Of a stretch of DNA of 4,017 nt, positions 1 to 4,017 are shown one piece after another. Within the stretch, counting starts at the first letter, position 1. Each line of letters opens with the position of its first letter. Location: the IMG/VR virus record IMGVR_UViG_2657245521_000003; one strand, 5' to 3'. The notes below the pieces were generated by a model, which searched no databases, had not been told where the DNA came from, and worked only from the letters and a program-made list of their open reading frames with translations. A program made the translations under genes and the position numbers. The stretch comes from a virus. Taxonomy: Duplodnaviria > Heunggongvirae > Uroviricota > Caudoviricetes.

Positions 1-204
1 CAGCCATGGTGGGATCTCCGATAAGGTTTTATTGACGGAAATGACCGGAATGATGAGCTGAATACCGGAAGGCAGTACCGGATAAATGGCGACATGTGGA
101 TTGGCTGCGATAATGCGTTCATAAGCCAGTGCATCGCCGTAGTAATGCCAGGCCAGGTTATCCCAGCGTTCGCCATCGGTGGTGATATGTTCAAGGTATC
201 GCAT
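1..204 (-). CDS. gpX-like LysM-type phage tail protein (baseplate 'glue'), 3'-partial: C-terminus lies beyond the window start
   Basis: Minus-strand ATG at 204-202 overlaps the upstream TAA stop (TAATG). The frame is open for 68 codons to position 1: MRYLEHITTDGERWDNLAWHYYGDALAYERIIAANPHVAIYPVLPSGIQLIIPVISVNKTLSEIPPWL. Pattern (W..LAW.YYGD ... AANP ... LPSG ... IP) matches my recollection of the ~67-aa P2 gpX / Phage_tail_X family. A strong Shine-Dalgarno AGGAG sits 6 nt upstream of the ATG (complement of 211-215). Not in the ORF track because it is short and has no stop inside the window. Confidence 0.8.
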   Translation of the reverse strand, partial: MRYLEHITTDGERWDNLAWHYYGDALAYERIIAANPHVAIYPVLPSGIQLIIPVISVNKTLSEIPPWL

Positions 205-1157
205 TACCAGCTCCTCGTAATGGTCGCGGCAGCAAGCTGGCTCACTGCGGGAGTGGTTTGTTGTACCGTTGTTCGTGCCTGATCAACCAACGTTGCGGCT
301 TTATCAAACGTCGCTTCGGCGATGTTGCTGGCAATGTCGTCGAAAAGTGTCTGAGCATGGTCAACCAGCGTACTGGCGTCATTGGCGCAGTCCCGTATAC
401 CTGGCATGTTACCCAGTAAAGCTTTAATCTGAGCCGACAACGCTTTTGGGAGTCCTGCCAGCATTTGCAGATCCATTGGCTGTTTAAACAGGGTTTCGAT
501 GGCGTCGATAGTCTTTTTCAACGACGTAATTATCTTTTCACACTTTTCTTTTAACGCTTTGGCCTCTTTAATCAGTGCTTTCACTTTTGCCACTGTTTTT
601 TTAATATCTTCAATGGTTTGCGCCAGTTCATCGAGCATCTCTTTGGCTTTGCGCATACCTTCTTCAATGGCGTTCAATATCTGATACAACCAGGACTCCA
701 CCTTATTCGGAAAATCGCTCGCCTTTTCCTCGATATTAGGCTCCTGGGTGGTAATTGCCGGGGGCAGCAGTGGGTTTTTCGGATCGCCGGTATACTCCTG
801 GAGCGACATTGTTCCGCTTTGGGCAATGACATTGCCCCAGGGATCGGTGTGCTGGTGAGTGGCGGTTAACTCTGTAATTACAAACCAGCCGCGATAATCT
901 CCGTTGCCAAACACCAGCGCCATTGCTTTGTGAGCAAGCATGGCTTCACGCAGTCGATTCAGCTCTGTTGTGGGTTGGCAAAACTGGCTGTGCAGGGAAA
1001 ATTCCAGCGCCAGCATATCCAGCTTATCGCCAATAAACTGCACGCCGGGTTTGCCTTCTATACGGGCATGTGTGGCGTAATCCACGCCCATTGTGCTTTT
1101 AAAGCCGTCCCAGAATGTGACAACTTTAAATTCAATCTCTCCTAAAACGGCATACAT
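204..1157 (-). CDS. gpU-like tail protein (tube initiator / 'ripcord' position) with Pro-rich linker and long coiled-coil C-terminal extension, 317 aa
   Basis: ORF-track ORF. ATG at 1157-1155 overlaps the tape measure TGA (TGATG). SD-like GGGGGT lies 7 nt upstream (complement of 1165-1170). Residues 1-122 (MYAVLGEIEF...GKPGVQFIG...LNRLREAMLAHKAMALVFGNGDYRGWFVITEL...) match the remembered P2 gpU family pattern (L.L.R....G.AWPL..G.G..G.YVI). Residues ~123-144 are a Pro-rich linker; 145-317 are Lys/Glu-rich heptad-like helix. Position immediately after the tape measure gene agrees with gpU synteny. Confidence 0.8.
   Translation of the reverse strand: MYAVLGEIEFKVVTFWDGFKSTMGVDYATHARIEGKPGVQFIGDKLDMLALEFSLHSQFCQPTTELNRLREAMLAHKAMALVFGNGDYRGWFVITELTATHQHTDPWGNVIAQSGTMSLQEYTGDPKNPLLPPAITTQEPNIEEKASDFPNKVESWLYQILNAIEEGMRKAKEMLDELAQTIEDIKKTVAKVKALIKEAKALKEKCEKIITSLKKTIDAIETLFKQPMDLQMLAGLPKALSAQIKALLGNMPGIRDCANDASTLVDHAQTLFDDIASNIAEATFDKAATLVDQARTTVQQTTPAVSQLAAATITRSW
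211..215 (-). promoter_or_regulatory. Shine-Dalgarno element (AGGAG) for the gpX-like gene, embedded in the gpU-like 3' end
   Basis: Minus-strand AGGAG 6 nt upstream of ATG 204-202; the start codon overlaps the gpU-like TAA stop. Confidence 0.6.
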
Positions 1158-3508
1158 CAGGCATACCCCCGGCGCTGCTGCTGCGCCATTACATCGTTAA
1201 TCATTCTTTCCAGTTCGCGTTTACTCATCGTCAACACGTTCTGAATCTCTTTAGTGGTGTTTTGTCCGTTACCCTGCACGGTAATTTGTGGCGAAAAATT
1301 CACCTGGACTTTTCCCGGGGAACGGGAGGGTAGCGTCGCCGGTTTGGTTACGGATTTACCAGGTAAAGAGGCCGACGCGGGTTTTGCCGATGACGGCGTA
1401 GCCGTTTTGCCGGATGGCGCGAGTTGTTTGCCCACCGGCAGCGTTAAAATCGCACCGGCAACGCCTGGAACAACGGTCGCGGGGGAGACTGATGCGGTAT
1501 TAGCCGTGCCTGTAACAGCCGCAGCCGATGCTTCTGTGCTGATACCCATTGTGGCTTTTAGCCAGTCTGGCATGGCGTTTTTGACCTGATCAATAATGCC
1601 TTTCAGTGCGGGGAAAGCATTCATTATGCCGTCGGCCAGGCTACCCAGTATATTGCTGCCGAACTCGCTAAAACTCGCAGGCATCTCAACACCAAACCAA
1701 TTCATCACATCGGAAAAGGCGCTATAGAACAACTCCAGCGGTGACCAGTCGAGAATCAACCGACAAATTCCTGCAATGCCGCCGTCAAAGGCCGTGGTGA
1801 TACGTTGCCAGATGGTCGAAAAGAACCTGGAGATAGGTTCCCAGTTGCGATAAATCAGATAAGCCGCGCCCGCAATCGCAGTGATGACCAGACCAATGGG
1901 ATTCATCAATAACACCCGGCCTAGCGAGAGAACGGTTCGACCAAACAGTTTCAATGCTCCGATCAGGCCACGACCAAGCAGTTGCGTTAGCCATTTTGCG
2001 CCGCCACCCAATGACTTAACCGCCGATAGCACTTTACTTGCCGCGCCGCCGAGGGCCAGACTTGCCCTGACTTTCAGGAAGATATCGACCAGACGAATAA
2101 ACGGCGAGGCGATGAGGTTCGCGCCCAGCTTTAAAACATTAAGCGCACCGTTAAACAGCCAAATCGCCCCGACGATTTTCGCAATGTTTTGCACCAGCGC
2201 CGGATGTTCGCGTAGCCAGGCACTGAACTGGCGAATAACCGGCGCAAGGCTTTGTGCCAGCTCGCCAATCGCCGGCATAAGCTGCAAGCCAATGCTGAGC
2301 CATAAATCATTTAACGCCAGTTGTAACGCTTTAGTCTGTTCAATGGGCGAGGCCATTTGCGCAGAAAAGTCAGCGTTAATCAGATTCTTGCTGGTAGTTT
2401 GCATGGCAGAGGCTTTTAACTGGCGATATTCCTCCATATTCGCCAGCATAGGTGCCAGGAATTCCACCGTTTGCGCATCGCCGAACATTTCGCCCAGATT
2501 AAATTGCGCCACCATCGATTGCAGCGCAGTGCTGCGAGCAGATAAATCTTCAATCTGCATAGTGCGTTTGAAGGTGTCGAGGATCGCCGGATTCATCTTC
2601 TCAAGCTGCATTTGCACGATATGAGTCATGGCTTCGCTAACACTCATACCGTTTTGCTGATGTTCAAGCAGAGAGCCTTGCAAATCGACGCCCTGGCTGG
2701 CGAACCAGCTATCGGTTTTTTTCGAAAAGGTGGTTTGCAGAAAGTGGTCAAAATTCTCAGCCGCCGCACTGGCGCTGGCCCCGTTTTTCATGGCGATCTG
2801 CATGGCGGCAGTCAGTTCAGTCATACCTTCCAGACCCTGAGCGCCGGTTTTACCTGCAAATTTGTCTATCCACTGCGTTTGCTCGGCAACGGCAGGCCCA
2901 CCGCTTTTGCTAATGCCGTACATCATGTTTTGCGCGGCGTGGAAATTTTCTGGCGCAATATTCAGTCGATCATGGGTTGCGAGCGCGGCATTCGCCCATG
3001 TTTCAGCACTTTCGCGCGTGGCGGTGGCAGCTTTGGCGATCTCCGGCATATAACGGTTGAGATCCTGTATCGACGACAAATTGCCTTCGATCAGCGTTTG
3101 GGCTGCGTTCTGTAAGGTGGTCTGATGCTGGTTAAAATCCATGCTCCAGTCGCGCAGATTAAGGCTGAGCGTCTCGCGGGTTGTATCATTCATCCCACCT
3201 TTGGTCGCCATATTGACCATGTTGTCCTGGAACTCATACGGCAACTTCCAATCGGGGGCTTCAACATTGAATACTTTGCTAAATTGCCCGGCAAATGTGT
3301 GGGTTTTCTCCATCAGATTAGCGCGGCTGCGGCTATTTTCCTCCAGGCGGAGAGCAGAATCGGCAAGTTGCTGCGTTAGTTTGATTACTGTCGCTTGCTG
3401 AGAAGAGAGAGCTAACAAAGTTCTGGCGTTGAGTGAGCCGTAACGGGCTATTGCCTGCGTCAACGTCTCATTACGCGCCTGAAGCTGGGTAATAATATCG
3501 TTGGCCAA
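1157..3508 (-). CDS. phage tail tape measure protein (gpT-like), 783 aa, TTG start
   Basis: Longest ORF in the window (ORF track). Mostly helical Ala/Gln/Leu-rich sequence, with a long Gly/Ala/Leu/Ile-rich hydrophobic block (about aa 400-600) and a Pro/Ser/Thr/Lys-rich low-complexity segment (about aa 655-735), both typical of tape measure proteins. Sits between a chaperone-like ORF and a gpU-like ORF. The only start candidate after the in-frame stop at 3545-3547 is TTG at 3508-3506, with a weak purine-rich SD (AAGAGA) 7 nt upstream. Gene identity is high confidence; the exact start is moderate. Confidence 0.9.
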   Translation of the reverse strand: MANDIITQLQARNETLTQAIARYGSLNARTLLALSSQQATVIKLTQQLADSALRLEENSRSRANLMEKTHTFAGQFSKVFNVEAPDWKLPYEFQDNMVNMATKGGMNDTTRETLSLNLRDWSMDFNQHQTTLQNAAQTLIEGNLSSIQDLNRYMPEIAKAATATRESAETWANAALATHDRLNIAPENFHAAQNMMYGISKSGGPAVAEQTQWIDKFAGKTGAQGLEGMTELTAAMQIAMKNGASASAAAENFDHFLQTTFSKKTDSWFASQGVDLQGSLLEHQQNGMSVSEAMTHIVQMQLEKMNPAILDTFKRTMQIEDLSARSTALQSMVAQFNLGEMFGDAQTVEFLAPMLANMEEYRQLKASAMQTTSKNLINADFSAQMASPIEQTKALQLALNDLWLSIGLQLMPAIGELAQSLAPVIRQFSAWLREHPALVQNIAKIVGAIWLFNGALNVLKLGANLIASPFIRLVDIFLKVRASLALGGAASKVLSAVKSLGGGAKWLTQLLGRGLIGALKLFGRTVLSLGRVLLMNPIGLVITAIAGAAYLIYRNWEPISRFFSTIWQRITTAFDGGIAGICRLILDWSPLELFYSAFSDVMNWFGVEMPASFSEFGSNILGSLADGIMNAFPALKGIIDQVKNAMPDWLKATMGISTEASAAAVTGTANTASVSPATVVPGVAGAILTLPVGKQLAPSGKTATPSSAKPASASLPGKSVTKPATLPSRSPGKVQVNFSPQITVQGNGQNTTKEIQNVLTMSKRELERMINDVMAQQQRRGYA
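1165..1170 (-). promoter_or_regulatory. Shine-Dalgarno-like element (GGGGGT) for the gpU-like gene, embedded in the tape measure 3' end
   Basis: Minus-strand GGGGGT 7 nt upstream of ATG 1157-1155; the start codon overlaps the tape measure stop. Confidence 0.5.
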
Positions 3509-3596
3509 AATTGTTTCTCTTATAGATTGGTGATGGCCCGCTGGTTAGTTTTCTGAAAAATGGGCTGGGAAGAAATAAACCTGGCGGGCTTTAAAG

Positions 3597-3623
3597 GACT
3601 CGCAGACATCAGGTCTGCGAGTC
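3597..3623. repeat. perfect 11-bp inverted repeat with 5-nt loop (predicted stem-loop) at the E'-tape measure junction
   Basis: Plus strand 3597-3607 GACTCGCAGAC, loop 3608-3612 ATCAG, 3613-3623 GTCTGCGAGTC; the arms are exact reverse complements. On the minus-strand mRNA the E' TGA stop (3611-3609) lies in the loop. No U-tract follows on either strand. Confidence 0.7.
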
Positions 3624-3737
3624 ATATTCGATCTTTATTTGAGCGCTGGCTTCATCCAGCCAGTTGCTAAAGTCATCGACGGTAAGGGCGTCTATCTCAC
3701 TGGGCGGAAAGCGAAACCATCTCGCCAGTAACGCCAT
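3609..3737 (-). CDS. E' / GpE-family small tail protein ORF (42 codons from first ATG); probably expressed as a recoded extension of the upstream chaperone rather than independently
   Basis: Minus-strand ORF below the track threshold: ATG 3737-3735 to TGA 3611-3609, MALLARWFRFPPSEIDALTVDDFSNWLDEASAQIKIEYDSQT. The frame is open from 3830 and overlaps the 3' end of the chaperone-like ORF by about 130 nt. The W-F-x-F-PPSE-(I/L) ... W-L-x-E-A stretch resembles my memory of the short 'GpE family phage tail protein' CDSs annotated between the chaperone and tape measure in P2-like prophages. No convincing SD precedes the ATG. Family assignment is from memory, not a search. Confidence 0.5.
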   Translation of the reverse strand: MALLARWFRFPPSEIDALTVDDFSNWLDEASAQIKIEYDSQT

Positions 3738-4017
3738 TGCCTGCCATAGCAGGGGAGGATTCTGTAACCACGGTAAGCATGGATTGAAATCGTTTCTGCA
3801 ATGCCTGGTAATCCAGCAAATCCATTTCAGCTAAATCTTCTGGCACCAGTCCGGTCATTGCCGCCATTAGCGGTTCATCCCACTCTTCTGGCTTTTCGCT
3901 GATCCGGCGCGCGTTGCGCATATCTTTTACTTTCAGGCGACGTAATTGCAGGTAAAGGTGCCGTTTCGCAGCAATAATCCCATCACGCGCGACGAATTGC
4001 TGTCGCGCTTTTTCCCG
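3697..4017 (-). CDS. tail assembly chaperone-like protein (gpE position), 5'-partial: start lies beyond the window end
   Basis: The minus-strand frame is open from the window edge (4017) to TGA at 3699-3697, 106 codons: REKARQQFVARDGIIAAKRHLYLQLRRLKVKDMRNARRISEKPEEWDEPLMAAMTGLVPEDLAEMDLLDYQALQKRFQSMLTVVTESSPAMAGNGVTGEMVSLSAQ. The track's ATG at 3921 is an internal Met: no SD precedes it and the frame continues upstream. Acidic C-terminal half, position directly upstream of E'/tape measure, and an overlapping alternate-frame ORF all fit the G/GT-type chaperone arrangement. Assignment is by synteny and composition only. Confidence 0.55.
   Translation of the reverse strand, partial: REKARQQFVARDGIIAAKRHLYLQLRRLKVKDMRNARRISEKPEEWDEPLMAAMTGLVPEDLAEMDLLDYQALQKRFQSMLTVVTESSPAMAGNGVTGEMVSLSAQ

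Follow-up and report, generated by a model that had tools for sequence, protein, structure and literature searches.

How is an E'-like reading frame expressed when it lies out of frame with the tail assembly chaperone gene that it overlaps? Tail chaperones coupled by a frameshift are a textbook form of recoding, for which P2 E/E+E' serves as the reference among contractile tails. The question is raised by a 4,017-nucleotide stretch of DNA from a tailed virus (Caudoviricetes; IMG/VR virus record IMGVR_UViG_2657245521_000003), referred to here in its entirety as the window, in which a chaperone gene of the P2 E/Mu gp41 family and an E'-like open reading frame (ORF) overlap. An initial annotation of the window had noted that the two frames are offset by +1 or -2, not by the -1 known from P2, and had proposed either a noncanonical recoding event or an indel that inactivated an E+E' fusion. 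Comparative analysis now points to a programmed +1 ribosomal frameshift at a UUU_C tetranucleotide, which would yield a 134-residue E+E' fusion and make the chaperone and E' ORFs one recoded gene; we estimate the probability of this reading at about 75%.

The E'-like frame lies at +1 relative to the chaperone gene

The ORFs of the window all lie on the minus strand and comprise a gpU-like gene, a tape measure gene, a 42-codon ORF at 3737..3609, and a chaperone-like ORF that stays open past the window end. We re-checked the coordinates of the initial annotation by three-frame translation of the minus strand and against the sequence itself, and each was confirmed, including an ATG at 3737-3735, TCC-TCC-CCT at 3759-3751, and CTT-T at 3711-3708. 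Codons of the chaperone frame, taken here as frame 0, have their first bases at positions equal to 0 modulo 3 and run to a TGA at 3699-3697. In the E'-like frame the first bases are at 2 modulo 3, and this frame is open from 3830, after a TAG at 3833-3831, to a TGA at 3611-3609. On the minus strand, a frame start at 4016 lies one base downstream of a frame start at 4017, and the offset of E' is therefore +1 (or -2), as first read. The -1 frame reads ...RPVR and closes at once at a TAG (3694-3692); at the window's chaperone locus it is without homology.

The assignment of the two ORFs as E- and E'-like also holds. The chaperone gene (3697..3951, minus strand) matches PF10109 (Phage_TAC_7) with E=2.9e-15; it is without its first 21 codons, and from codon 22 on its product is 100% identical to E. 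coli A10 WP_000658215.1, annotated as a "phage tail assembly protein". For the +1-frame peptide, the top Pfam match is PF06528 (GpE'), yet the scores stay below the cut-off of 23 bits (17.6-18.4, or 15.8-22 at the widest). Compared directly with P2 E', the peptide gives E=8e-5 in BLASTP and, in a profile-profile comparison (hhalign), a probability of 96.4% with E=1.1e-9. Judged from these similarities, it is a diverged homologue of P2 GpE'. E' is left out of the annotations of these tail clusters because it falls below the Pfam cut-off, because NCBIfam has no model for E' or for an E+E' fusion, and because the 15 best-matching E. coli genomes leave it unannotated. In A10, the Prokaryotic Genome Annotation Pipeline (PGAP) likewise gives only a 105-residue chaperone and leaves the stretch from its end to the tape measure gene empty.

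The +1 arrangement is shared by enterobacterial tail clusters and phages

Alignment with homologues had been suggested in the initial annotation as a way to learn whether the frame offset is conserved. We assembled 144 homologous loci from five enterobacterial genomes, IMG/VR contigs, E. coli phage PhiKM, Burkholderia phage BcepMu, phage Bise, and one Pasteurella phage (the viral scan was queried by subgroup, a single broad alignment being too diverse), and assigned the frame of E' at each locus by comparing a hidden Markov model of E' peptides with the three forward frames. An E' homologue occupies the +1 frame in 142 of the 144 loci; the unique loci of this +1 type number 111. These +1 loci form four groups, namely tail clusters of E. 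coli and other enterobacteria, PhiKM-like phages, BcepMu-like phages, and Pseudomonas phage Bise, and the chaperones of these groups are merely 35-57% identical to that of the window. The +1 offset is thus real and conserved, and no accident of one sequence; shared by 142 loci, the arrangement is ancestral to a large group.

The two remaining loci depart from this pattern in different ways. In Pasteurella phage AFS-2018a (L049), E' is at -1 to the chaperone and scores 52 bits, above the Pfam GpE threshold; a CAA-AAG site is found 4-5 codons away from where the +1 site aligns. Because this phage keeps a -1 E', the direction of the shift would have changed within the chaperone/E' family. The other locus (L124, IMGVR_UViG_2734481909_000003) is assigned to frame 0 and carries a 1-nucleotide indel within E' at FQPGEID. 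Here the distal half of E' sits in the chaperone's own frame, through either mutation or sequencing error.

Purifying selection changes frame close to codon 76

We compared the ratio of nonsynonymous to synonymous polymorphism (pN/pS) in frames 0 and +1 along the overlap in the window's closest relatives (group A, 33 unique loci). Upstream of a TTT at codon 76, frame 0 has a pN/pS of 0.13, against 1.39 for frame +1. Between TTT_C and ATG 3737 the relation is reversed, with 1.14 in frame 0 and 0.26 in frame +1, and further downstream the values are ~1.8 and 0.15-0.20, respectively. PhiKM-like loci switch in the same manner, from 0.15 (frame 0) and 1.38 (frame +1) before the transition to 2.31 and 0.08 after it. 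Per-codon entropy in group A places variation in the third positions of frame 0 up to codon 77 and, from codon 82, in the first positions of frame 0, which are the third positions of frame +1. A +1-frame Trp codon, Trp82, located six codons after codon 76, is invariant, as are Pro codons upstream of ATG 3737. Purifying selection on the +1 frame before this ATG indicates, therefore, that the +1 frame is translated well upstream of it.

Stop codons that move among relatives bound the transition from both sides. Within the window's group, the frame-0 stop is found at codons 85, 101, 106, and 108, which is 9 to 32 codons past the TTT (up to 36 in BcepMu-like loci). The nearest 0-frame stop thus comes 9 codons after the TTT, the last +1-frame stop comes as near as 9 codons before it, and the shift can therefore be no more than 9 codons away from codon 76. 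Beyond this point, the short chaperone product ends in a frame-0 tail, QSMLTVVTESSPAMAGNGVTGEMVSLSAQ in the window (3700..3785, minus strand), that appears unconstrained: with a pN/pS of 1.1-1.8 and a stop that wanders among relatives, the last residues of the annotated chaperone look like read-out that selection does not maintain.

A single UUU_C is fixed within the permitted interval

Within the interval left by these stops, exactly one 0-frame TTT_C is present in each of the 111 unique +1 loci (3789-3786 in the window), and it is the sole element conserved across the four groups. It appears as CGA-TTT-CAR in the window's group and the PhiKM group, as [TG]CC-TTT-CGC in the BcepMu group, and as GCR-TTT-CAR in the Bise group. 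The Phe codon at the site is TTT in 111/111 loci, when Phe codons overall in these loci are just 23-55% TTT. Similarly, among conserved columns of two-fold-degenerate codons, 21 of 22 use both synonymous codons, and the site Phe alone never toggles.

The proposed shift site in the window, CGA_UUU_C, occupies 3786..3792 on the minus strand, with CGA at 3792-3790, UUU at 3789-3787 (Phe76 of the intact protein), and C at 3786; the window's gene contains no X_XXY_YYZ heptamer of the -1 type. Sequences of the form UUU_Ynn (where Y is a pyrimidine) are especially prone to +1 shifting in bacteria even without a stop codon, as in argI and YopN-TyeA (PMC5009743). For influenza A PA-X, PMC5009743 and PMC3498833 describe a +1 shift on UCC_UUU_CGU, which is nearly the BcepMu-group sequence.

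A +1 slip would couple the short chaperone to an E+E' fusion

Based on these observations, we propose that most ribosomes would remain in frame 0 up to the TGA at 3699-3697 and produce the short chaperone (105 residues in the intact element), and that a minority would slip forward by one base with tRNA-Phe in the P site on UUU 3789-3787. Re-pairing of this tRNA from UUU to UUC would gain a G-C pair at the wobble position. The predicted 134-residue product consists of the 76 N-terminal residues common to the short chaperone and 58 further residues, NPCLPWLQNPPLLWQAMALLARWFRFPPSEIDALTVDDFSNWLDEASAQIKIEYDSQT, with the GpE' domain. This extension, assigned from translation, P2 E' homology, and pN/pS, would be encoded in the +1 frame at 3609..3785 (minus strand, stop TGA 3611-3609 included), and the junction of the fusion is expected to read ...LQKR/FNPCLPWLQNPPLLWQAMALLAR. 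If lambda G/GT and P2 E/E+E' are a guide, the N-terminal part common to both products may bind the tape measure protein and the extension may recruit the tail tube, with the slip setting a fixed ratio of both products. We would expect a low efficiency of the basal type, which would be compatible with the small share of fusion required by chaperone pairs of this kind; in lambda, G and GT are made at 30:1 (PMC5009743).

Several points count against this proposal. The site is placed by comparing sequences, at a resolution of ~9 codons either side, and in the BcepMu group the pN/pS switch is blurred by a long, unconstrained, variable linker. Since the Phe residue is itself conserved, conservation of the motif is partly due to the protein. 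A search for stimulators found none: the A-site codon (CAA, CAG, or CGC) is neither rare nor a stop, no Shine-Dalgarno (SD)-like sequence lies upstream, and no conserved RNA structure was detected downstream, where RNAalifold on 29 sequences gives -7.25 kcal/mol with no compensatory pairs and single-sequence folding gives z = -1.04. The efficiency may therefore be merely the basal level of UUU_Y. In addition, the window's own copy of the chaperone gene is truncated, so its expression may be nil.

Other ways into the +1 frame at about this position might be, for example, a -2 shift, out-of-frame binding in the A site, or transcriptional slippage. The comparative data would accommodate any event within the 9 codons on either side, and Mu, with a chaperone of the PF10109 family, has a verified -2 shift; its mention in the initial annotation is borne out by the GenBank note and a review (PMC5009743). 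However, no codon of the interval finds a cognate triplet upon moving back two bases (UUU would meet GAU), nothing in it resembles the G-run of Mu CGG-GGG-CGA, and the window's gene offers no homopolymer of at least 5 bases on which a polymerase could slip, so we consider such routes unlikely. We regard as quite unlikely that E' is a separate 42-residue protein translated from ATG 3737 (3735..3737, minus strand) with no recoding at all. ORF finders do report this ORF, and the ATG is present in 33/33 unique group-A loci, but no SD-like motif precedes it in the window and almost none does among close relatives, and its equivalent is absent from many loci elsewhere (15 unique PhiKM-like loci and the Bise-like loci). 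The 16 codons upstream of it already carry the +1 constraint described above (0.26 versus 1.14, with the invariant Trp and Pro codons), a +1-frame ATG, GTG, or TTG before the invariant Trp is lacking in most close relatives, and no start codon is conserved across groups. Moreover, PMC3931495, citing Christie et al. 2002, describes the homologous P2 E' as having no ribosome binding site and as made by frameshift extension of E. ATG 3737 thus probably encodes an internal Met of the fusion.

The initial annotation had also pointed to two candidate slip sites further downstream: the C-run at 3759-3751, where tRNA-Pro would slip by -2, and CUU_U 3711-3708, for a +1 slip. Both sequences exist in the window, and the C-run measures 4-7 bases in some E. 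coli lineages; recoding at either is nevertheless very unlikely. The C-run is lineage specific, TCC-TCC-CCT being replaced in most relatives by TCC-GCA-GCA or similar. Both sites also lie downstream of Trp82 and of the onset of +1 selection, CUU_U by ~25 codons, and ribosomes in frame 0 would stop before reaching both of them in three loci (L035, L036, and L042, stop at codon 85) and before reaching CUU_U in five more (stop at codon 101), which makes eight loci for the latter. As for the choice between recoding and an inactivating indel, the evidence favors noncanonical recoding. That a 1-nucleotide indel broke an ancestral -1 E+E' fusion and left E' as a decaying relic would agree with the truncated, rearranged state of the window's copy and with the lack of head genes in the intact cluster, yet it is extremely improbable given that the same +1 offset recurs across genera in the 142 loci, complete isolated phages PhiKM, BcepMu, and Bise included, that the +1 frame is under strong purifying selection, and that the -1 frame, which ends immediately, shows no homology. 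The related suggestion of a remnant is true of the window's copy, but the cause is a cut at 3951 by thiK/lpoB DNA and not an indel that breaks the fusion.

Among the sequences collected, two encode the 134-residue fusion as a single ORF (P0001 and P0002). We discarded them as natural in-frame evidence; they carry 1-C deletions in C4/C7 runs and are most likely sequencing errors, because the same assemblies break up neighboring tail genes too (sheath, tube, and tape measure). Four other fusions (P0003-5 and P0026) are singleton internal deletions and were set aside as well. The C-tract in which the P0001 and P0002 deletions lie (codons 86-88, window 3751-3759) varies from C4 to C7 among E. coli lineages (L014 and L017; L150-L153).

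Relation to P2, Mu, and other recoded genes

The proposed +1 frameshift at UUU_C gives a system that works like P2 E/E+E' but fails its defining feature, the -1 shift at a heptamer. The likeness extends to gene position, which in the A10 cluster follows the order tube, chaperone, extension, tape measure, then U and D; to the chaperones, both within PF10109 (the window's copy by score, P2 E only by the family description, which names "E"); and to the extensions, which are homologous (hhalign, 96.4%). In both systems the shift site, a proposed one here, coincides with the end of the conserved chaperone domain; the site described here lies within 3 alignment columns of the slippery Phe codon of P2, and UUU is found at both. 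In contrast, P2 shifts by -1 at a T6G heptamer, GGT-TTT-TTG, whereas the signal proposed here is the tetranucleotide UUU_C, with no heptamer and a +1 direction. The frame-0 tail after the site is ~30 codons long here and 7 in P2, the E' described here ends 100 nucleotides before the tape measure start whereas P2 E' overlaps it, and it falls below the Pfam GpE threshold.

With Mu, the system shares the relative frame of the extension (+1 being equal to -2) and Mu-type neighbors in the cluster, Mor and Gp37; the PF10109 description also lists "41", and Mu gp41 is placed in the family by that description only. It differs in that the verified -2 shift of Mu takes place on a G-run that permits re-pairing, of which there is no counterpart here, and in that the Mu extension (EWLRCRNDIEKAATAIGVIL...) has no visible similarity to E'. 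BcepMu and PhiKM are true homologues: BcepMu gp42 is an E' homologue at +1 to the chaperone gp41, and each phage has a single TTT_C at the same place (TCC-TTT-CGC and CGA-TTT-CAG, respectively). However, GenBank pairs gp42 with gp43, in a slippage like that of lambda G/T, whereas by the geometry described here the partner of gp42 is gp41; the BcepMu extension is also longer (78 residues) and has a longer linker. The PhiKM record annotates no extension. In BcepMu (AY539836.1 24602-25363, L047), gp43 lies in the frame of gp41 in GC-rich DNA and may be spurious.

The closest mechanistic parallels are unrelated in gene content. From the accounts in PMC5009743 and PMC3498833, argI, YopN-TyeA, and PA-X have the same UUU_Y tetranucleotide and the same proposed P-site movement of tRNA-Phe from UUU to UUC, and need no adjacent stop; their stimulators differ where they are known, and the case described here is proposed from sequence comparison. 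The lambda G/GT class is similar in layout: two ORFs overlap between the major tail or tube gene and the tape measure gene, the downstream one conserved out of frame and with no conserved start.

Tail chaperone genes use -1, -2, or +1 shifts in different phages (PMC5009743), and one data set of tail-chaperone frameshifts contains 350 forward cases among 2,718 positive sites (PMC10274946). Against this background the present case would be an incremental one with no new principle, since tail chaperone genes with a +1 shift and +1 slippage on UUU_Y have each been described before. We nevertheless lean, less firmly than for the locus itself, toward the broader view that a P2-tailed lineage makes its essential E+E' fusion by a +1 shift on a bare UUU_C, unaided by a stop, rare codon, SD-like sequence, or RNA structure, and in a direction flipped relative to the -1 of P2 and the Pasteurella phage at the same domain boundary. 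As part of the same view, that lineage would include PhiKM and BcepMu (both Bcepmuvirus), phage Bise, and tail clusters without head genes from E. coli and other enterobacteria. If true, +1 frameshifting that needs no stimulator would have a natural model in bacteria, with a sequence close to that of influenza PA-X; homologous E/E' pairs would be seen to use opposite shift directions, with a testable four-base signal for the +1 branch. The fusion product would then be absent from current annotations (PGAP, PhiKM), or the ORFs would be wrongly paired (BcepMu gp42/gp43), and gene models would need correction both in Bcepmuvirus phages and in tailocin-like clusters, the latter being of interest as narrow-spectrum antibacterials.

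Source cluster and neighboring features

Window positions 1-3951 are 100% identical to a cluster of E. coli A10 that lies between lysC and yjbD (NZ_CP028764.1 4617562-4633202; locus L149). This cluster encodes a Mor activator, holin, transglycosylase, Gp37, sheath, tube, chaperone, tape measure, U, X, D, V, W, J, I, a tail fiber, and a fiber-assembly gene, with sheath, tube, chaperone, tape measure, U, X, and D in that order in the intact copy. It contains no head, replication, integrase, or transposase genes, and because head, integrase, and transposase genes are absent it looks tailocin-type. Its layout, in which a lysis cassette accompanies a complete contractile tail including fiber genes, is that of an R-type tailocin, and many of its IMG/VR relatives are contigs only 15-17 kb long.

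The remainder of the window, 3952..4017, is unrelated core-genome DNA on the plus strand, made up of the 3' end of lpoB and the 5' end of thiK and joined to the cluster at 3951/3952 with a 3-nucleotide overlap. Because this segment is foreign to the tail cluster, the chaperone copy is left without its first 21 codons and everything upstream. The lpoB/thiK boundary is present in 5,426 of 5,426 complete E. coli genomes, and the window's junction of thiK with the tail cluster was found in none of them, nor in Joint Genome Institute (JGI) metagenome contigs or IMG/VR contigs. Either a rare rearrangement or a chimeric assembly would account for the junction.

Between E' and the tape measure gene, an 11-bp stem-loop, GACTCGCAGAC/GTCTGCGAGTC (3597..3623, minus strand), holds the E' stop TGA inside its 5-nucleotide loop. 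The RNAalifold consensus has 10 pairs and is conserved in 23 related loci, with one pair covarying from G-C to A-U in 8 of the 23. It is not terminator-like, since no T-run is present; it may affect mRNA stability or control translation of the tape measure gene. The latter (1157..3508, minus strand) starts with TTG, encodes 783 residues matching PF10145, and is annotated at the same place in A10. The gpU-like gene (204..1157, minus strand) encodes a 317-residue tail protein that matches PF06995 over residues 6-123 (E=5.9e-34) and has a long C-terminal extension. The ~190 residues after the P2_GpU domain give weak matches to coiled-coil-type Pfam families only, and P2 gpU is 159 residues long.

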